From positions 1,550,001 through 1,614,000 of the forward strand of contig NW_027191405.1 in NCBI RefSeq assembly GCF_041146345.1: a DNA stretch of 64,000 nt. Reading direction: 5' to 3'. The notes under the pieces are model-generated. The model had not been told where the DNA came from. It searched no databases and worked only from the letters and a program-made list of their open reading frames with translations. Within the stretch, counting starts at the first letter, position 1, and each line of letters opens with the position of its first letter. The position numbers were made by a program, and so were the translations under genes. This stretch comes from Neodothiora populina (Eukaryota). Below, one piece after another: positions 33,363 through 48,281 of this stretch.

Positions 33363-35366
33363 ATGTCGGCCATCCTGAGCGCAGACGATCTCAACGATTT
33401 CATTTCTCCCGGTGTCGCGTGCATCAAGCCCGTCGAGACCCTGCCCAAACAGCAACCATCAGACTCCACCAGCAACCCTTACGAAGTCACGACCGAAGAC
33501 AAAGTCGCCGCAGCCGATGCTCCTCCCGCCTCCATCTCCTTGACCGACTGTCTGGCCTGTTCGGGCTGCGTGACGTCTGCCGAAGCCGTCCTGGTATCTC
33601 TCCAATCACATGCCGAAGTTCTCTCCACCCTCGACGCATACCCTGAATTGCCTGTACCCTCTTCGACACAGACCGACTTGAAGGGTCAGGATGGCAAGAT
33701 CTTCATCGCGAGTGTCAGTCCACAGACGCGCGCGAGTATAGCAGCCACATACAACGTCAGCGAAGGACAGGCCTCGAATATGATCGCACAACTATTGTCG
33801 GGGCCTCGAGGTCTGCGCAGCGGGGGAGCAAGCCACAGCGGCTTCACATGGATCCTGGACACCAACACCCTACGCGACATCGCCCTCGTGTCGGCAGCAG
33901 ATGAGGTGGCCGCGTCGCTGTCTTCAGACCCAACGAGAGAAGAACAACCGAAGAAGCCAGTACTGGCCTCTGCGTGTCCAGGCTGGATCTGTTATGCTGA
34001 GAAAACACACCCCCACGTCCTGCCGCATATCTCTCGTCTCAAATCACCCCAAGCGCTGGCTGGTACCTTGGTCAAGAGTGTCCTCGCCCGTCGTTTTGGT
34101 CTACGACCCTCGCAGATCTGGCACCTGGCCGTCATGCCATGCTTTGACAAGAAACTCGAAGCCTCACGAGAAGAACTGACAGACATGCACTGGGACGATG
34201 CCGTTTCAACGCCGCACCAGCAGCGAACAGGCATCAGAGACGTCGACTGTGTCATCACCGCCCGTGAACTCCTGATGCTGGCCGAAGCACGCGACATTTC
34301 TTTCCCTCTGCTCCCACGAACACCACTGCAGCGTTCGTCTGCTTATCGCCCGCGTTTCCCTGATCCTCGACTCGACTCTTTTCTCTTTCCCTCCGCCGCC
34401 GCTTCGAAAGCGAGGAAGCAGACCGACGCGGCGGCGGGAACGAGCGGAGGATACCTCCACCACATTCTTCACACCCACCTACACAACCTACAAACAACCA
34501 CTCATCCTGAGGCGCGCATCGTTACAAAAAGAGGCAGAAACGCAGACGTCATCGATTACGAGATTGTCGCCGACAGCCGCAACGAAGAAGCCGAAGTCTT
34601 GTTTCGTACAGCACGCTACTACGGCTTCAGAAACATCCAGAACCTCGTCCGTCGACTGAAACCCGCCCGCGTCTCAAGACTACCCGGCGCCGCGGCAAGG
34701 AGCGCTGTTCGCAAGCCCATGGGCAGGACAGCAGGCGGCGCTGCCACGCCTGCGCCTGCCATGCAAGACTATGCGTTCATAGAAGTCATGGCCTGCCCAG
34801 GCGGCTGCACCAACGGCGGAGGCCAGATCAAAGTCGGCGATGTAGCATCCCTGCGCCTTCAGGGTGTCCCCGAGGCACCACACAATGACGACAATACCGG
34901 CGCTGGTATCTCAAGCGGGATCGAAAACGGAAGCCCAGAGCAAAAAGTCTTGCCCGCACAAAAGGAATGGCTGGGATTTGTAGACGAAGCTTACTTTTCC
35001 GCCTCTTCCTCTCTGGACGACGACGAGGACGAGGACGACGCCTCTTCCCCAGCTGACACGCCAATGACAAACGGCGACAGCACAGCAGCAAAGGCCGAAA
35101 CGATCATAAACTCCATCTCTCACACTCAGATCTCACACGTCGTCTCCCACTGGTCTGAATTGACCTCCATCGACGCCGAGAAGCTCATCTTCACTTCTTA
35201 CAGGAGAGTCGACAGCGACGTGGGTGACCAGAACGGTCAGCAGGCAGAAGACTTCGTGTCGCAAGATAGTGTTGTTGGTGAGAAGAGCAGAAGACCGAAG
35301 AAGAAGGCAATCAGTGACGTCGAGAGAGTGGCTGGGTTGGCTAATTCTATTGGTGGAGGATGGTAA
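33363..35366 (+). CDS. NAR1: Cytosolic Fe-S cluster assembly factor Nar1 (iron-only hydrogenase-like)
   Basis: [88 protein letters not shown]. Confidence 0.96.
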
Positions 35367-35757: not shown

Positions 35758-37662
35758 TCAACCCATCGCCGGGCCCGCAGAAAACGTTGTCGCCCTCGTC
35801 GTCGACGTTGACGACGACGACACCAACTCCGACGAAGCCGGGGACGAAGCCGCCGACAACGAAAGCGGGTAAAATATGTCCATATCCCTGGGAACATACA
35901 GAAACGGCTGCGGCTGCGCCAGCCCGACAAGGCAATTCCCCAGCACCTCTACCGCGCGCGCGGCGACGACATTGCGATCTTTGGTCACGGACAAGAAATC
36001 CACACAGCGCCTGACGTCGTCGACATAGCCCGCTGACGCCCGAGGGTCGGCGAAGCGGGCCTCGACGACGAGCGTGATAGCCGCCGAAAACAGATTCGAG
36101 GCGATGGCCCAGGGCCGGTGGCGCGCCGACGCGGCGGTGTAGCGGTCGTCGACCAGCGAGACGATGGCTTGGGCTGAGCCGACGCAGATGGCTTGCGTGC
36201 GGGCGTGAGAATTGGGTTTCTGCACCCATTGGTCTTGGAGCACGCGGTTTATCGCCATGCGGTAGTACAGGATTGTCATGGAGAGGTTGTTGCGTTGCCA
36301 GGAGAGCCAGGGCCGAGTGCTGGGGTGGTCGGGCGAGTGCGAGGGCGAGTCTTCTTGCAGGTGGATTGGGAGGTCGGCGATGATGTTCGCTAGCGCTTCG
36401 TCGCTGTGTAGGACTAGAGCTTCGAGCTCGTCGGGGCTGTGGCGCGCTGTGGTCAGCGAGGTTCGGAATCCGTGCCATAGTTTGGATATCGCTATCATGG
36501 CGAGGTGGTATTGCACTGCACGCGGACGTGGTCGTCGTGGTGAGTGATCGCATGGGAGAGGGCTCTGGCCTTCGAGCTCTTCGTCGTCGATGTCCAGGGG
36601 CAGTGCGACGTCGAAGTCTGTCTGTCTCACCAAAGGCAGTCCCAGGGGTCGCTGTAGCCATTCGCAAATCACCAAAGTCCACCATACGCGACGACGGACT
36701 TCGTTGTCGAGGATGGATGCCGACATGTGATGCGAATCCGAGTCCAGGTGGAGGTTCTGGGCAATGCGTAGCCCGCTTGCTAGATGGGTCGAGTGCAGAC
36801 CAAAGTCGCCCATACCCTTGTACAACCCCAACAATATGGCGATGGTCTGGACCGTCCGCATGTTGTGCTGTCGCATAAAGTCTGCTCTGTTCAAGTAGCA
36901 AATCGACGCTTCGTACCAGTTCTCAAGCACTGTCGCGACGTGATCGTGAGGCAGCCCTGCCATTACTGCTTCTTGCTCGTCAAGGAACAACAGAGTCACT
37001 GCGAGGAACCCATAATATATTGCTAACCAGGACGGGTCCGTATGCAACGCTGATTGCGTGTTGGACCAATACATTTCATGTTCTCGTCGGAATGTTGGAA
37101 CATGCACTGCAAAGTGGATCCACGATGTCCACACGATGCCGTGTTCCACCAGATATTTACTGCAGCCTCGAGTCGGAATGAAAACATCGTTAGGCGATGA
37201 CACCGCAGATGGACGCTTCGCATTCAGGTCGGCAGGGTGTACATAGTTCTCAAAGGCTTCTGTGATTGTAGGACTGCCACCAAGTACCCACGAAGGGTCC
37301 ACCAGTTCAGTAGGTGCTTGAGTGTTAGTTTGAAGAGCGAGTTTCAGACGTCGATTTTCTTCCAACAGGTCCGAGTACGACAGACTGTCAGGCTTTCCGG
37401 TGACTCCCCTGACCATGGAAGTCAGTGACGTCTCATGCGGTCTACAGTGCGGGTTCAGTCCGTACGATATGATCTTGCCTTTGACACGAACAGTCTCGCG
37501 AGTGCAAGAGGTCTCTAGACCTCTAGCTATACATGTTTGGCAGGGTATATTTTTGTCACATTTTATCCGTTTCTTGGAACATCTTATACACGAGCGAGGC
37601 ACTCTCTGACTGCATCTTATTTTGGAAGATGTCGATTCCGCTCCACTGAAACTCTGGAACAT
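35758..37662 (-). CDS. Zn(II)2Cys6 fungal transcription factor
   Basis: SCIRCSKKRIKCDKNIPCQTCIARGLETSC binuclear cluster and a fungal TF middle domain (EVRRRVWWTLVICEW). Probable in-frame 57-nt intron at 37409-37465. Confidence 0.9.
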   Translation of the reverse strand: MFQSFSGAESTSSKIRCSQRVPRSCIRCSKKRIKCDKNIPCQTCIARGLETSCTRETVRVKGKIISYGLNPHCRPHETSLTSMVRGVTGKPDSLSYSDLLEENRRLKLALQTNTQAPTELVDPSWVLGGSPTITEAFENYVHPADLNAKRPSAVSSPNDVFIPTRGCSKYLVEHGIVWTSWIHFAVHVPTFRREHEMYWSNTQSALHTDPSWLAIYYGFLAVTLLFLDEQEAVMAGLPHDHVATVLENWYEASICYLNRADFMRQHNMRTVQTIAILLGLYKGMGDFGLHSTHLASGLRIAQNLHLDSDSHHMSASILDNEVRRRVWWTLVICEWLQRPLGLPLVRQTDFDVALPLDIDDEELEGQSPLPCDHSPRRPRPRAVQYHLAMIAISKLWHGFRTSLTTARHSPDELEALVLHSDEALANIIADLPIHLQEDSPSHSPDHPSTRPWLSWQRNNLSMTILYYRMAINRVLQDQWVQKPNSHARTQAICVGSAQAIVSLVDDRYTAASARHRPWAIASNLFSAAITLVVEARFADPRASAGYVDDVRRCVDFLSVTKDRNVVAARAVEVLGNCLVGLAQPQPFLYVPRDMDIFYPLSLSAASSPASSELVSSSSTSTTRATTFSAGPAMG

Positions 37663-38398: not shown

Positions 38399-39520
38399 AT
38401 GCCTCATGCCGTCCAGGATTCGGCAAGGCTGGATGATACCGTCGTTTATGGCGATTGGCGTGATGAGCTGTTCCGCGACGGCGTAGTCGTCGTTAAAGGG
38501 GCCATTGCCAAGGAGAGGGCGCAAGACTATGTCGATGAGATGTTCAAGTGGGCCGAGAAGTTTCCGTACGGATTCGACAAGAACGATAAGTCCACCTGGA
38601 CTCCTGAGCATCTACCAGCCCATATCAAGGGTGGTATGTATGGAGGATATGGATGCCAGCATGAAAAGTTCATGTGGGAAGCAAGACAGTATGTTCTATC
38701 AACCAGACAGTGCATGTCTCGCACTAAGTCATGACAGGGAGCCAGGTGTTCTAGAGGCATTTGCCAAAGTCTGGGGCACTGACGAACTTTTGGTTTCCTT
38801 TGATGGTTTCAACTTCACCTTACCCACCGGTACGGCGCTACCTCAGACACAGCCCTGGCCACATGTCGACCAATCACCAAAACGTAAAGGCATGCAGTGT
38901 GTGCAAGGCATCATCAATCTTGCGCCTAATGGTCCGGATGATGGCGGCCTCCTATGCATGAAAGGATCTCAGAAGATCAATGAGGAGTTTTTCAAGACAC
39001 ATCCCGAGGTTGTGGAGCGTGCCACTTGGGGCAGCGCTGATTGGTTTGGCTTCGATGAGAACGAAGTCAAATGGTTCACAGACAGGGGCAGCAAGCTCGT
39101 CAAAATATGTGCCGATCCTGGGGATCTGATTCTTTGGGACTCCAGAACCATGCACCACAACTGTGTTCCAACTACACAGAACGTCAGATCAGTCATCTGT
39201 AGGTTTCTCTTGCCTTTCGACTCGAAGGTGCTAACGTTACAGATGCTTGTTACACCCCGGCAACATTCGCTCATCCAGATGACCTTAAGATGAAGGCCGA
39301 ACTTTTCGATCAGAGGACGGGCACGGTAGGCTCCCCTGAAGGCCAGCTTCGGGATCTTGGCTGACATGCATAGACTCACTGGCCACACGCAAATCTTTTT
39401 CCACATGTCGCAAAACCACTGCGACTTGGTAAACCGGATCCAGTAGAGCGGAGTGCTCCATTTGAGGAACCTGTCGTGACGGAGCAGGTACTGAAGCTTG
39501 CTGGACGAGTACCATACTAG
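38399..39520 (+). CDS. Fe(II)/2-oxoglutarate dioxygenase, phytanoyl-CoA dioxygenase (PhyH)-like family
   Basis: WGTDELLVSFDG, PWPHVDQSP (HxD), VQGIINLAPNGPDDGGL, GDLILWDSRTMH (distal His), THWPHAN. Three introns. Confidence 0.85.
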
Positions 39521-42380: not shown

Positions 42381-44285
42381 ATGTCAAGATCTAGTAAGGG
42401 CGAGTGTGCTCGGCCATCGCCTTTGGCTTGCATCGAATGCAGGAAACGTCACCTGAAATGTGATGCCTCATTACCCATCTGTTCTCGCTGCTCGTCAGCT
42501 GCATTAGAGTGTGTGTACACGCCATCTCGGCGAGGGTATCGAGGACCGTCGAAGAGGAAGGACAACAGACAGCACGATCAGTCGCGGAGAGCACCCCGCC
42601 AGTCGATAGAGCGGCGAGCATCCAATACCTCTCACAACGCAGCAGTGGATTGGCCGCTATTACGCCCGATAGAACAAGTCGACACGGAATTCACAAGTAA
42701 TTACACGTTCCAATCGAGCTCAACAGGTGATGATATCGGCAATGCTCTAACCATGTTCGGCGCCGAAGGTACTATACAGTTACAAGATCAGCTACCCACG
42801 ACATATCTCGACAGCAGCGCTGAACCTCGTGCTGGTGCAGACGTTGGTGTCGGTTCTCGCGCTGGTACTGGTACTGGTACTGGTACCGATGACGATGCTT
42901 ATGGTGACGAAGACGACGATGATCCCCAGCTTGTCAATCTCTACTATGCAAATTTCCATGGCGCTCACCCTATGCTCGTACCTAGAGCTTGGTATGCAGA
43001 TCAACGTTATCCAAGCTACTTGCGCCATGTCGTACAGTTCATTGGAAGCCACTTCTCTCCTTCCGTCTCGAGTGATTTCCTATCAAGGGATGCATATAGT
43101 AAGCTGCAAGATACGAGTATCAAATCGCCGTTCATGGTGCAGGCTCTTTTACTCTTCTCGATCGCGCTGCATTCTCAGACTAAGCTGAAAGAAGCAGAGA
43201 AGACCCTCGCTCGTGCCGTGCAGCTATCCCTTGAACTGGGGATGAATGGGCAAGATTTCGCTACCATGAACGGCCGACAGCAGCCCATCCTCGAAGAGAG
43301 TCTGAGGAGAACTTGGTGGGAGGCGTACATTCTTGACGGTTACACAGCTGCTCTTCACCGCAAGCCGGGCTTCAAGACTAGTCACGCAAATTTAAAAGCC
43401 CCACTGCCATGCGAGGAGACTGCCTACGCCGAAGGCGTCTGTATTCCAAGTCCTCCCACCTTAACTGAGTTCGACATGAGGCTCTTTGCAGATGAAGAAA
43501 TACAGTTTTCTTCGTTTTGCTACCGCATCGAAGCAGTGAGAATCCTCTCACGGGTCATTGCCATCGCTGGGACTGATGAAGTTCACGGAGATCAGGTTCA
43601 AGCAGTGGACAATGCTCTGGCCGGATGGGTCCACCATCTACCACCGACTAAAGCAGACATTATCAACAGCTTCGGCGAAGTCGATGAAATGCTGTTTCAA
43701 GCGCACATGATCATACAGTGCTCCAATATTTTCCTTCATTTCCCGCGGAGCGACCTCTTGTCCACTCTACCGGGCACAGAGGAGATCGCCTGCGCCAGAG
43801 GGAATAAGCAGATGTACCCAGCATCGACGCAGCATATCCACGCTGTCAAAGCTACAGATGGCTCGAAGGAGCTTTCAAATCTAGCAGCTCTACGATTACC
43901 TGTCCAGAAGCATACACCCCTCTTCATATGCGGATTGGTGCTCAGCGCCGTCGTTCAGCTGTCCGCATGTGCGGTGCACGCATGTCATTGTATGGAACAG
44001 CATCGAGATAGAGTCACTTTGATTATAGGTGTACTCAAATCTCTAAGCCAGCATTGGCCACTTGCAAGCCAGGTTCTGCAACAAATCAAGCGCGTTGGAT
44101 CAGAGGTTCTACAGGTTCGCAGTAACACCCAAGCGACGGTACCGCCAGAATCATCAGCGCATGATAGTGGAGTGGATGTTTCTCATTGCATGGATGACAA
44201 TTCGTGGATTGATCTCTTTGTGGGTCAAGGCCTCGCTGGTCTCCCATTCTTTGAAACGACTGCCACTTTCGAGCGATCTCCTTGA
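42381..44285 (+). CDS. Zn(II)2Cys6 fungal transcription factor
   Basis: ACIECRKRHLKCDASLPICSRCSSAALECVY cluster, YYANFHGAHPML and ESLRRTWWE middle-domain motifs. Confidence 0.93.
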   Translation: MSRSSKGECARPSPLACIECRKRHLKCDASLPICSRCSSAALECVYTPSRRGYRGPSKRKDNRQHDQSRRAPRQSIERRASNTSHNAAVDWPLLRPIEQVDTEFTSNYTFQSSSTGDDIGNALTMFGAEGTIQLQDQLPTTYLDSSAEPRAGADVGVGSRAGTGTGTGTDDDAYGDEDDDDPQLVNLYYANFHGAHPMLVPRAWYADQRYPSYLRHVVQFIGSHFSPSVSSDFLSRDAYSKLQDTSIKSPFMVQALLLFSIALHSQTKLKEAEKTLARAVQLSLELGMNGQDFATMNGRQQPILEESLRRTWWEAYILDGYTAALHRKPGFKTSHANLKAPLPCEETAYAEGVCIPSPPTLTEFDMRLFADEEIQFSSFCYRIEAVRILSRVIAIAGTDEVHGDQVQAVDNALAGWVHHLPPTKADIINSFGEVDEMLFQAHMIIQCSNIFLHFPRSDLLSTLPGTEEIACARGNKQMYPASTQHIHAVKATDGSKELSNLAALRLPVQKHTPLFICGLVLSAVVQLSACAVHACHCMEQHRDRVTLIIGVLKSLSQHWPLASQVLQQIKRVGSEVLQVRSNTQATVPPESSAHDSGVDVSHCMDDNSWIDLFVGQGLAGLPFFETTATFERSP

Positions 44286-44323: not shown

Positions 44324-44375
44324 ACCTCGGCAGGGCTTTCCGTCTGAACGAACGCCGAGGCATGACGCCGAGGTT
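44324..44375. promoter_or_regulatory. Cluster of GCCGAGG motifs upstream of the Cys-rich microprotein gene
   Basis: ACGCCGAGG at 44352 and 44365 (direct repeats) and inverted ACCTCGGC at 44324. Each contains a CGG/CCG triplet typical of Zn2Cys6 half-sites. Confidence 0.4.
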
Positions 44376-44556: not shown

Positions 44557-44784
44557 ATGTGCAGAAAACAACAGTGCTCCAAGTGCAGTACGTTCACCGT
44601 GATCTAGTGTCTGCACACGCAAGCATTATGCTAACACAAAATCACAGACAAGGCCTCCTGGTTCGGCTGCGGCTTGCATGTCCCCAGCGTAATGGACCAG
44701 ATCCCCGAGAGCGAGCGCTGCACCTGTGAACCAAAGGTCGAGCGCGAGGGCAAGAAGTATCCGCCCAAAGCTGAGATGGCCTGA
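44557..44784 (+). CDS. 55-aa cysteine-rich microprotein (two exons; absent from the ORF track)
   Basis: ACAACATG start context. Intron 44588-44647 has GTACGT donor, GCTAAC branch and CAG acceptor. Spliced product: MCRKQQCSKCNKASWFGCGLHVPSVMDQIPESERCTCEPKVEREGKKYPPKAEMA*. Confidence 0.85.
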
Positions 44785-45563: not shown

Positions 45564-46672
45564 TCAAAAGACCAATGCAGCGACCATGCCCGAAGAAAAC
45601 ATCGCAGCTACTGAAACAAAGCTCGAAAGTGAAAACGTGGCGAGTCCACTGATGCCGTGTCCGGATGTGCAGCCGCCCGCGATACCAGCACCGAATGCCA
45701 TGATCGTGCCTCCGAGGATTGCCTTGACGGGCTCCACGACAGTGCCTGGAGTTGCGCTCGCGGGGGGCGGGAAGTGGTGCGAAAGGACGACACTAGCCGA
45801 GGTTATGCCAAGAGCGAACACAGTCGCTGGTGCAAGAAGTTGGCTGGTAGCTTGTGGGTCGAAGATGCTCGATCTGAATGTGCGTTGCAAGTAGCGGCCG
45901 ATGTTCTGATACACTCCAGAGCAGCCGACGGAGTGCTTGTTTAGCAGAATGGAAACTCCTTGCGCGGCTCCAATGGCAAGACCACCAGTGATGGGCGAGA
46001 TGAGGCCTGCAAGTTGCGGCTGTGACTTGTGGGGGTCTAGGCTGGAGGCGATATATAGAATGGCCATGCAAGTGGCTTCCCAAGCGACCACCATGGTCAA
46101 AGGGTTAGCTTCGAGCGTCGCAGTGATGGTCGGCTCTCGCGATGAAGTCGATGTTGCAAGTAAGACCGTAGCATCAGATTGTTTCTCATGTGACTTTCGG
46201 AGAGATTGAGTCCGAGCTGGCTTCGTATGTTGGAGATATGGCAGCGCAAGGACGTAACCAAGGCCACCAACGACAGCACCGATGAGAGTGAATGTTCCGC
46301 GGCCGGTTCCAGCCTGCACGAGGACAGTGCCTGGGCATGCGCCCGTCAGAACCATCCCGGCACCAATCATGGCACCGCCAATGACGTTGCCATCATATGG
46401 GAAGAAGCCCAAGTTTCGAGGCTCTCTGACTTTCAGTGTCGCATAATGCGTCTGATTTGCAACATGCAGCACGATTCTGATATCAGATTAGTAGCGCTTT
46501 TGGTTCCCTCATCGTAAAAGAATGCTTACGCGCTGACACCACTTGCAGTGACGAAGGATTTCAGCATATGGAAGTTCGTCAAATTGAACTGCGTCAAAAT
46601 TACGTCTGGTGAATAGACGCCTGAGGCAAAAAGTGCAGCGCCAAAGGCTGCGCCTGCCTCAAATTCGGCCAT
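45564..46672 (-). CDS. YeeE/YedE family sulfur-compound (thiosulfate-type) transporter, two-repeat membrane protein
   Basis: MAEFEAGAAFGAALFASGVYSPDVILTQF exon, intron 46477-46529, then GGAMIGAGMVLTGACPGT and GGTIMAFGAGIAGGCTSGHGISG signature motifs. Confidence 0.88.
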
Positions 46673-47511
46673 AGCAGATGCTCTCACAATGGTGGTACAG
46701 AAAAGTGTAAGAGTAAAGCACGTGGGTGGCGTTGATAAGGGAAAAAGCAGATCTTCTGACCGACCGAACTGAACTTGTACGGCCACCATAAAACTTCACA
46801 TACCTAAGGTACCTTAGAACAGCTCACTTACACTGACGGGGACGTTGGCGTGCTTTCACTATGGTCGCCGGCTGATCTACCTGAACGGTTCAGTGCGCTT
46901 TACGCTTCCACGCTATAGGGTTCTCTTCATCACAAACAATGGAAGCGAGATTCTGTCTGGATATGACCAAATGAATCAACAGACGTTGTGGCCCGCGCTC
47001 TTGACATAGGACTGTAACATTCGGTTTGTCCACATGATCATCGAGACTTTTGAGTTCATGGGCACCGCTGCTTGTTTAGTAGTAGAGACGCGCTTTTCCT
47101 CCAGTGCTATATGCTATTATATGTGTTCCTCACCGCGGATCTGATCCTTCTGCCAAGGATAGACGATCACTTGTCCGTTATTCTTGGCGATAAAAGTGAC
47201 GTTGTGGGATGCCCACATCACCTCGCTCACAGCATCAGAACTTCCTGTGACAACCATCGAAGGATGCATCGCCGCTGTCTAGCGGGCGAGCAACGATGTT
47301 TGTGGTCTTGGTTCATTTATATCGGCAATCGGCTCCTATCGCCAAGACCGTAGTGAACAGATATGATGGGCGAAAGTTCAACCCTAACGACGTAGGATTG
47401 GTCGAAATTGGCAGTTTCGACTCATGTCCCTCTTTACGAGTAGTATAGCAAGCGAAAAGTGGACATAACAGGATGGTCGTTTGACGTCTTTCCCAATCCT
47501 TCGCGCGTATA

Positions 47512-48281
47512 AGCTTGGCAACCTGAGGTTGGTCCCACCTACCTTTGGTGCGCTTTAGACCATACTGCAACCTTCTACAGTAATCAACCATTCTACGTCG
47601 CGTTACTTATTATATTCAATTGAATTGACCTTATATTATTGATAAAATGGATCAACGCGAAGTCATGTTGCAAGCGGCCCTTCAAGAGCTTCAAAATCAC
47701 CCTGAAAAATTAATTAAAGGCACTGTACGAGAATATGGCATGTCCGCAACAACGCTTCGTCGTCGTCGCGACGGAGGCATTAATCAACGTACTGCTCAAG
47801 AGCCTACACAAAGGCTTGTTCCTATTCAAGAAGAATTCCTCGTCAATTGGATATTACAGCAAGATTTGCAAGGTTGTGCCCCCTCTCCGAAGCGTGTTCG
47901 CGATATGGCTACACATATCCTTCGTTTACATAACGACAACAAACCTTTAGGGGTTAATTGGCTCCCTAAGTTGGTAAAGCGTAATCCAAGGATTGCCTCT
48001 GTAATCGGACGTAAAATCGAGGCCGCGCGAATTCATGGAACCTCGCAAGAAGCTATACAATTGAATATGAGGCCTCTAAGGCCTTGAAGGTAGCGAAGCA
48101 ACCTAATTTAGATGCTCAAAAAGCTGCAGAAGCCCTTAAAAATATATCCATAGAGGCATGTCTCCATAGATGGCAATTGAATTGAATTTTATCCATTGAT
48201 ATTCCAATATTTCATCTAAAGGTTGCAGTATGGCCCAAAGCGCACCAAAGGTAGGTGGGACCAACCTCAGGTTGCCAAGCT
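47512..48281 (+). mobile_element. Internally deleted pogo/Fot1-type (Tc1/mariner superfamily) DNA transposon, 770 bp
   Basis: ~63-bp terminal inverted repeats (AGCTTGGCAACCTGAGGTTGGTCCCACC...) with 2 mismatches, flanked by TA at 47510-47511 and 48282-48283. The interior is AT-rich. Confidence 0.92.
47647..48185 (+). pseudogene. Truncated transposase (HTH + CENP-B-type HTH only; DDE domain deleted)
   Basis: TVREYGMSATTLRRR, QRLVPIQEEFLVNWIL, LGVNWLPKLVKRNP. After ~48060 an out-of-frame C-terminal remnant ends ACLHRWQLN*. Confidence 0.85.

Follow-up and report, generated by a model that had tools for sequence, protein, structure and literature searches.

The question raised by this locus is whether a short stretch of fungal DNA that is missing from a plain list of open reading frames encodes a protein and, if so, in which process that protein takes part. 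The window, by which we mean the whole 64,000-nucleotide stretch of Neodothiora populina DNA analysed, had been predicted from its letters to hide a two-exon gene for a 55-residue microprotein with a good start context and a canonical intron, as follows.

44557..44587, forward strand: coding part of exon 1, with Met1, Cys2 and a CxxC (Cys7, Cys10); identity with P0003
44588..44647, forward strand: 60-nt GT-AG intron, phase 1
44648..44784, forward strand: coding part of exon 2, with KxxWxGCGxH, CxC, a fungal YPPK-like tail and the stop

A spliced gene for a cysteine-rich protein of 55 residues

These coordinates are right and the signals are all present. The ATG at 44557 has an A at -3, the intron runs from a GT donor at 44588 (GTACGT) to an AG acceptor ending at 44647 with a branch-like GCTAAC at 44632-44637, the unspliced frame contains two in-frame stops inside the intron, and the stop codon is TGA at 44782-44784. 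GC3 is 0.82 in exon 2, and the GC content of the intron is 0.45. Splicing yields a product of 55 amino acids that is 100% identical to P0003, NCBI AAFC00_005533, a 'hypothetical protein' of N. populina, and that carries six cysteines and one histidine within 37 residues (Cys2, Cys7, Cys10, Cys18, His21, Cys35 and Cys37), as had been claimed. The gene is therefore real; the letter-for-letter match also means that it was known to gene predictors, so that 'hidden' holds for the plain list of reading frames and fails for the NCBI annotation. The 24-Mb genome contains one match.

Of 90 candidates scored with a five-sequence profile, 89 were relatives; where these bear a name, it is that of a hypothetical or uncharacterised ascomycete protein. 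Basidiomycete yeasts also encode the microprotein. All six cysteines, the histidine, Trp15 and the flanking glycine are invariant in 38 full-length fungal rows. Of 80 fungal metagenome loci, which come down to 49 once near-copies are removed, 69 have a GT-AG intron one base past the Cys10 codon, 8 lack it and represent transcripts or intron-less genes, and 3 could not be parsed; this shared position indicates that the gene model is not a product of chance.

One family in fungi, bacteria and viral contigs

The original prediction had placed similar peptides in Actinobacteria and proposed an uncharacterised cross-kingdom family, to be checked by an HMM search with neighbourhood analysis. A motif pattern built without Met1, Cys2 and the C-terminal cysteine matched at least 122 stretches in GTDB, and 125 bacterial ORFs derived from the matches were listed, with two duplicate loci removed. 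Residues outside the pattern were recovered with it: an ATG or GTG followed by a cysteine stands six codons ahead of the pattern in 125/125, Cys35 is present in 123/123 complete ORFs, and a Shine-Dalgarno-like run precedes most of them. An HMM made from fungal sequences only scored 124 of the 125 at E <= 1e-3 for a library size of 1.8 billion, which argues for homology beyond a mere shared motif. Homologues with the Cys/His pattern were thus found in both fungi and bacteria. The predicted CxC ending needs correction: it closes 69 of the bacterial ORFs whereas 44 end in CxGH, 9 in CxGxH and 1 otherwise (2 are cut), so that the final ligand in bacteria is Cys or His. An attempt to find covariation of this last-position swap with other columns was discarded as dominated by sampling, and two GTDB loci from a first scan with the fungal pattern were rejected as both antisense to real genes.

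Most bacterial hosts belong to Actinomycetota, and Chloroflexota, Myxococcota and Acidobacteriota are also represented; the microprotein occurs in 8 of 100 evenly drawn Actinomycetota genomes. The family counts 2841 clusters at 90% identity, out of 2953 candidates, and 1234 clusters at 50%. Together these data define a single family that spans Dikarya, several phyla of bacteria and a number of viral contigs, with seven conserved Cys/His positions. In a tree of 52 cores and 38 columns the fungi form one side of a branch with support 94/91 (unstarred), from which neither donor nor direction can be read. None of five members matched any Pfam or NCBIfam family even at E up to 1, and a PDB sequence search with the microprotein gave none, apart from one chance row at E 0.12. 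Neighbours in the ESM Atlas are unnamed clusters, one of them mostly Streptophyta on three records and to be taken as a lead only; a PANTHER family without assigned function may exist.

Several features of the mobile and paired copies were observed in passing. The family is encoded on eleven viral contigs (L245-L255). They include low-GC contigs with a giant-virus-like look, 97-482 kb long (L248, L254, L255), and phage-like contigs in which the copies are led by Shine-Dalgarno sequences (L245, L246). The top BFVD match is a Yasminevirus protein, itself uncharacterised (prob 1.0, TM 0.60, 37% identity, E 1.4e-3). Among plasmid records, 75 carry the gene (34 of Rhodococcus, 16 of Clavibacter, 7 of Mycobacterium), and in 29 of the best 30 plasmid rows no listed gene lies under the match, in a gene table that is itself incomplete. 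Several bacteria have two copies side by side (L011:4983-5831, L038:4983-5415, L091, L093, L008), one of them His-ended, as CxG(x)H and often with an FF-x-RLFGR-like tail, and the other short and CxC-ended.

Bacterial copies are linked to persulfide-detoxification genes

Flanks were analysed for 80 of the at least 122 bacterial loci, 78 of them distinct, with genes called by our own script; 148 nearest neighbours were scanned in Pfam, 139 second neighbours took their labels from blastp against those alone, and representatives were named in NCBIfam. With strict labels, a core sulfur gene (CsoR-family repressor, rhodanese, MBL-rhodanese fusion, CoA-disulfide-reductase-rhodanese, TauE, YeeE, YeiH or SQR) was found in 40/78 loci, as compared with 41/78 before 4 looser labels were dropped. 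At least two such genes occur in 25/78 loci, one lies within 200 bp of the microprotein in 24/78, and the proportion among full-length loci is 25/41. Thioredoxin genes are present in 14/78, YeeE adjoins the microprotein in 1/78, and a P-type ATPase is a nearest neighbour in 1/78. The claim of relatives near rhodanese and sulfur genes was borne out: genes found next to the copies are of the rhodanese, persulfide-dioxygenase-like, CoA-disulfide-reductase-rhodanese, TauE and His-less CsoR-family types.

Adjacent CsoR-family repressors carry cysteines at X and X+29 (Cys-x28-Cys) and no histidine at X+25, the copper position, in 29 of 30 cases, the remaining one being unparsed; 0 of the 29 parsed repressors has the Y-position histidine of a C-H-C copper site. 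The persulfide-responsive repressor ScCsoR of Streptomyces coelicolor has the same cysteine spacing without the histidine (Cys37/Cys66) and leaves DNA on persulfidation (PMC7533328), and the x-C-x-C fingerprint is that of persulfide sensors (PMC11672702). A TACC-n-GGTA box is located within 120 bp upstream of 55/125 bacterial ORFs, often about 40 bp ahead of the start, as compared with 0.9 in shuffles and 13/390 distant unlabelled genes, and it fits the published ScCsoR box ATACC-n6-GGTAT (PMC7533328). The box is kept in 17 of the 38 loci that have no sulfur gene, which leaves 21/78 with neither. In 50 of 101 sampled genomes, a close repressor match (at least 79 bits, a threshold put at a gap after the scores were seen) occurs in 5/8 Actinomycetota genomes with the microprotein and 5/42 without it (p 0.005), or 5/40 and p 0.006 when the unpublished genomes G006 and G023 are left out; 3 of the 8 have no close match.

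These results demonstrate that the bacterial microprotein is linked both to persulfide-detoxification genes and to the His-less CsoR-family repressor box. The copies show the two marks of a ScCsoR/CstR-type persulfide regulon, namely a His-less x-C-x-C repressor and an upstream box, and we are highly confident that they belong to such a regulon. The closest known system is the S. coelicolor ScCsoR (SCO0620) circuit pdo-tauE-csoR-rhod, which shares the repressor type, the box and the partner genes (PMC7533328). No cysteine-rich microprotein is named in the passages that describe this circuit; a gene this small may appear as hypothetical in the supplements to PMC7533328 or to studies of CstR networks. 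Fungi also differ from this circuit in that they lack such a repressor and have a Zn2Cys6 factor in its place.

The fungal neighbourhood suggests a sulfur link

The following features surround the microprotein gene in the window.

33363-35366, forward strand: NAR1-like hydrogenase-fold gene, within 12 kb upstream
35758-37662, reverse strand: second Zn2Cys6 factor gene, within 12 kb upstream
38529-39293, forward strand: PhyH dioxygenase gene, within 12 kb upstream
42381..44285, forward strand: Zn2Cys6 transcription factor gene (PF00172 and PF04082); its stop lies 271 bp ahead of the microprotein start codon
44319..44334, forward strand: conserved promoter element AGGCGACCTCGGCAGG, a variant of TCGGCGAC, the motif of the fungal family; possible binding site of a Zn2Cys6 factor
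44350..44360, forward strand: second conserved promoter block GAACGCCGAGG, 11 bases, identical in contig L146
45564..46672, reverse strand: convergent gene for a sulfur transporter of the YeeE/YedE family (PF04143), 351 aa, its two exons separated by an intron at 46477-46529
46864..46870, reverse strand: a single CGGCGAC, 198 bp ahead of the YeeE start codon; weak, as 8.6% of control windows have one
47647-48087, forward strand: Tc5-type transposase DNA-binding fragment, just past the YeeE promoter

The YeeE gene (PF04143 E 2.8e-31, 109.7 bits against a curated cut-off of 27) lies 779 bp downstream of the microprotein and is the sole PF04143 match in the 24-Mb genome. For one named gene, the probability of lying this near by chance is about 1e-4 to 2e-4, and it is roughly tenfold higher for any sulfur gene, which is relevant here as the adjacency was spotted post hoc and any of 10-20 sulfur genes would have qualified. 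This single-copy, thiosulfate-transporter-like neighbour suggests an overlooked metal-holding sulfur-stress protein common to fungi and bacteria. Contig L146 has the same three-gene order, with a factor 64% identical, the microprotein and the last 25-40 YeeE codons at the contig end. A related Zn2Cys6 factor also flanks the microprotein in L128 (42%), L170/L175 (38%) and L140 (31%), and the L170 factor has the factor at 42381..44285 as its best match in the N. populina genome (E 5.6e-39 vs 9.5e-6). Both L170 and the related L178 carry, 1.3-2 kb downstream of the microprotein, a gene whose domains (cytochrome b5, Moco, dimerisation) are arranged as in sulfite oxidase. The factor at 42381..44285 is thus a candidate regulator of the microprotein.

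Across 80 other fungal loci, many of them on short contigs, the neighbour is YeeE in 1/80 and the Zn2Cys6 factor in 5/80, and sulfite oxidase is confined to one lineage. The remaining neighbours at 49 loci are unrelated to sulfur; 120 of 128 picked ORFs were scanned, the omitted 8 being factor ORFs or duplicates. The NAR1-like, second Zn2Cys6 and PhyH genes showed no link to the microprotein in other fungal loci. A DEAD-box helicase lies upstream in six loci (L150, L161, L171, L173, L189, L197), and an FMN oxidoreductase of the Old Yellow Enzyme family lies downstream in three (L167, L204, L205). A bacterial persulfide dioxygenase query had no match in the N. populina genome, which is not evidence of absence, and a literature search for fungal YeeE returned nothing.

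In the promoter of the microprotein, all 16 bases of AGGCGACCTCGGCAGG are identical in L146 (16/16) within diverged surrounding DNA, and TCGGCGAC is present in 18/44 fungal microprotein promoters as compared with 7/359 control windows, a gap that is still large even though its p-value is flattered by the discovery of the motif on these same promoters. CGG-bearing sites are typical of Zn2Cys6 factors (PMC10374912), and the adjacent factor would bind the CGG-bearing motif of the microprotein promoter. Within the 1.5 kb scanned upstream, a span that may miss promoters of long genes, TCGGCGAC is absent from the matches in the N. populina genome to SQR, Moco (three), rhodanese domains (seven), the SSU1 family (three) and cysteine dioxygenase (one), so that no wider fungal regulon is shown. 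A genome-wide 11-mer scan gave 27 hits against 16 in the control, mostly in coding or tRNA genes, and revealed no regulon; L225 lies within a dihydrolipoyl-dehydrogenase-like frame and three hits are in tRNA genes. The arrangement resembles the Zcf2 regulon of Candida albicans (SSU1, CDG1, AOX2), in which a fungal Zn2Cys6 factor acts in reactive-sulfur defence (PMC13170222, PMC10374912), and differs from it in that the motif is missing upstream of the SSU1-family and cysteine dioxygenase matches.

We lean slightly towards a sulfur role for the microprotein in fungi. The strongest competing account, which we consider unlikely, is that the sulfur link is bacterial only and that the fungal gene is a general oxidative or electrophile stress gene whose YeeE and sulfite-oxidase neighbours are accidental. 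It would explain why most of the 49 distinct loci have no sulfur neighbour, why flavin oxidoreductases and DEAD helicases recur beside the gene, and why the motif is missing from other fungal sulfur genes. Against it, two different sulfur genes occur in separate lineages with the same regulator ortholog near each (window, L146, L170). Functional neighbours are rarely kept together in fungal genomes, and missing linkage therefore says little. What is new in this work is the fungal side, absent from the original prediction: an adjoining gene of the YeeE family, a regulator linked to the microprotein and elements in its promoter. Should the fungal link prove true, it would provide a candidate sulfur-sensing regulator with its DNA element, and would place fungal YeeE in the context of a partner; if a sulfur module is shared across kingdoms, it offers a first handle on the role of eukaryotic YeeE proteins.

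Predicted structure and candidate metal sites

An AlphaFold model built on 139 rows (pLDDT 89.8, pTM 0.68) has strands at 3-6 and 13-16 that form a hairpin with the CxxC at its turn, a helix at 22-26 and a C-terminal hairpin. PDB fold searches with the model gave no significant match; models of 55 residues score poorly, and a new fold is not thereby proven. The CxxC knuckle followed by Lys and Trp recalls zf-CW/treble-clef domains, and CW domains are among the Foldseek rows, none of them significant at this small size.

The microprotein very probably binds metal. The swap of the last-position cysteine for histidine is one that a metal ligand would tolerate and a disulfide would not. Met1 is removed from proteins that start with Met-Cys, leaving a free N-terminal amine, and seven side-chain ligands together with this amine make eight, enough for two tetrahedral sites; a ligand role of the amine would also account for the fixed place of Cys2 directly behind the start. 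We infer that residues 2-37 hold two metal ions, most likely zinc, with Cys7, Cys10, Cys18 and His21 (knuckle and CxxH before the helix) as putative ligands of site A, and Cys2 (thiolate and alpha-amine after Met1 removal), Cys35 and Cys37 or His as those of site B.

Metallothioneins are defined by a very high share of cysteine, the absence of aromatic residues and little regular structure. The microprotein differs from them, classic fungal ones included as had been proposed, in its cysteine content of only 6 in 55 residues, its invariant histidine and Trp15 (38 fungal rows), its ordered hairpin-helix model with strands and helix at pLDDT ~90, and the lack of a profile match. It is placed outside metallothioneins, TusA/YeeD and every scanned family. 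Small size, cysteine richness and presumed metal-thiolate character are nevertheless shared with metallothionein-3 (PMC12618007) and mycobacterial MymT (PMC11672702).

A possible sink or relay for reactive sulfur

The reading that we prefer, and to which we give an even chance, is that the microprotein forms a metal-thiolate microdomain on its own and serves in the stress response to reactive sulfur (persulfide/polysulfide), acting as a two-site zinc-thiolate persulfide sink or relay. A rise in sulfane sulfur would induce the gene, in bacteria by persulfidation of the His-less CsoR-family repressor and in fungi by the linked Zn2Cys6 factor acting through the CGG-bearing motif. Metal-bound thiolates would take up sulfane sulfur, sparing other thiols and zinc sites, and the loaded protein would be reset by thioredoxin or a CoA-persulfide reductase or, alternatively, would hand its sulfur to rhodanese and dioxygenase. 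In N. populina it would buffer sulfur moving through the adjoining YeeE-like transporter. In metallothionein-3, zinc-bound thiolates are able to store sulfane sulfur, and thioredoxin resets them (PMC12618007); this precedent for storage, together with the thioredoxin genes at 14/78 bacterial loci, favours a persulfide sink or relay over a metal buffer, a sulfur carrier or a copper gene. The microprotein probably works like a zinc/persulfide metallothionein inside a known kind of bacterial regulon, and the sink chemistry itself falls somewhat short of even odds. A wider version, speculative and less probable again, would have an ancient two-metal microprotein of unsolved fold with an N-terminal cysteine ligand as a dedicated sulfane-sulfur sink or relay common to bacteria, fungi and some viruses, around which fungi rebuilt an inducible persulfide module (Zn2Cys6 sensor, TCGGCGAC element, YeeE or sulfite oxidase).

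Alternatively, the protein could be a metal buffer that is induced with the sulfur regulon and, much like a small metallothionein, only catches zinc or copper that sulfide stress sets free or sends to the wrong place, without itself carrying sulfur. Seven Cys/His within 37 residues, a tiny and often orphan gene with its own box (17/38 loci without sulfur genes) and copies on plasmids (75 records) and viral contigs are in keeping with this. We regard it as quite unlikely, as the fixed ligand spacing, the invariant Trp and Gly and the ordered fold contrast with the variable cysteine runs of metallothioneins, and about two ions would be a low capacity for a store.

A dedicated sulfur carrier or enzyme partner is more doubtful still. 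Here an exposed Cys2 would accept sulfur from YeeE, rhodanese or dioxygenase in the manner of YeeD/TusA, or the protein would hold an Fe-S cluster instead of zinc. Cys2 is invariably the first residue after Met, and the His-ended CxGH forms recall the CDGSH motifs of Fe-S proteins. Bacterial YeeE requires a small cytoplasmic cysteine acceptor, and the YeeE-YeeD (TsuA-TsuB) thiosulfate uptake system likewise sets a YeeE-family transporter beside a small cysteine protein (PMC11073785). Against a carrier, no CPxP motif was found in the microprotein alignments A2 and A3 and no TusA fold match was obtained, in contrast to YeeD; YeeE linkage is rare across the family (1/78 bacterial loci), and no fixed partner is retained across loci. 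That the gene belongs to the copper response of a CsoR/RicR regulon as an analogue of MymT is highly improbable: the box is similar to those of copper-sensing CsoR and RicR (PMC7533328) and orphan copies could answer to either repressor, but 0/29 parsed repressors have the copper-binding histidine, their scores of 31-43 bits are far below the RicR cut-off of 175, a P-type ATPase is nearest in only 1/78 loci, and the linkage, unlike that of MymT, is to persulfide and not copper repressors.

If the persulfide reading is right, it adds to a defence so far described as enzymes, transporters and sensors a widespread small effector that had gone unnamed, being below most length cut-offs and spliced in fungi. 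In the literature searched, mostly outside subscription papers and supplements, no paper describing the family was found.

The C-terminal tails vary. Six fungal forms (P0023, P0099, P0112, P0184, P0188 and P0193) end in a cysteine followed by three residues, which we take to be CaaX-like and a hint of prenylation, and the tails of bacterial microproteins often look amphipathic. Together these ends suggest that some family members may be anchored to membranes.
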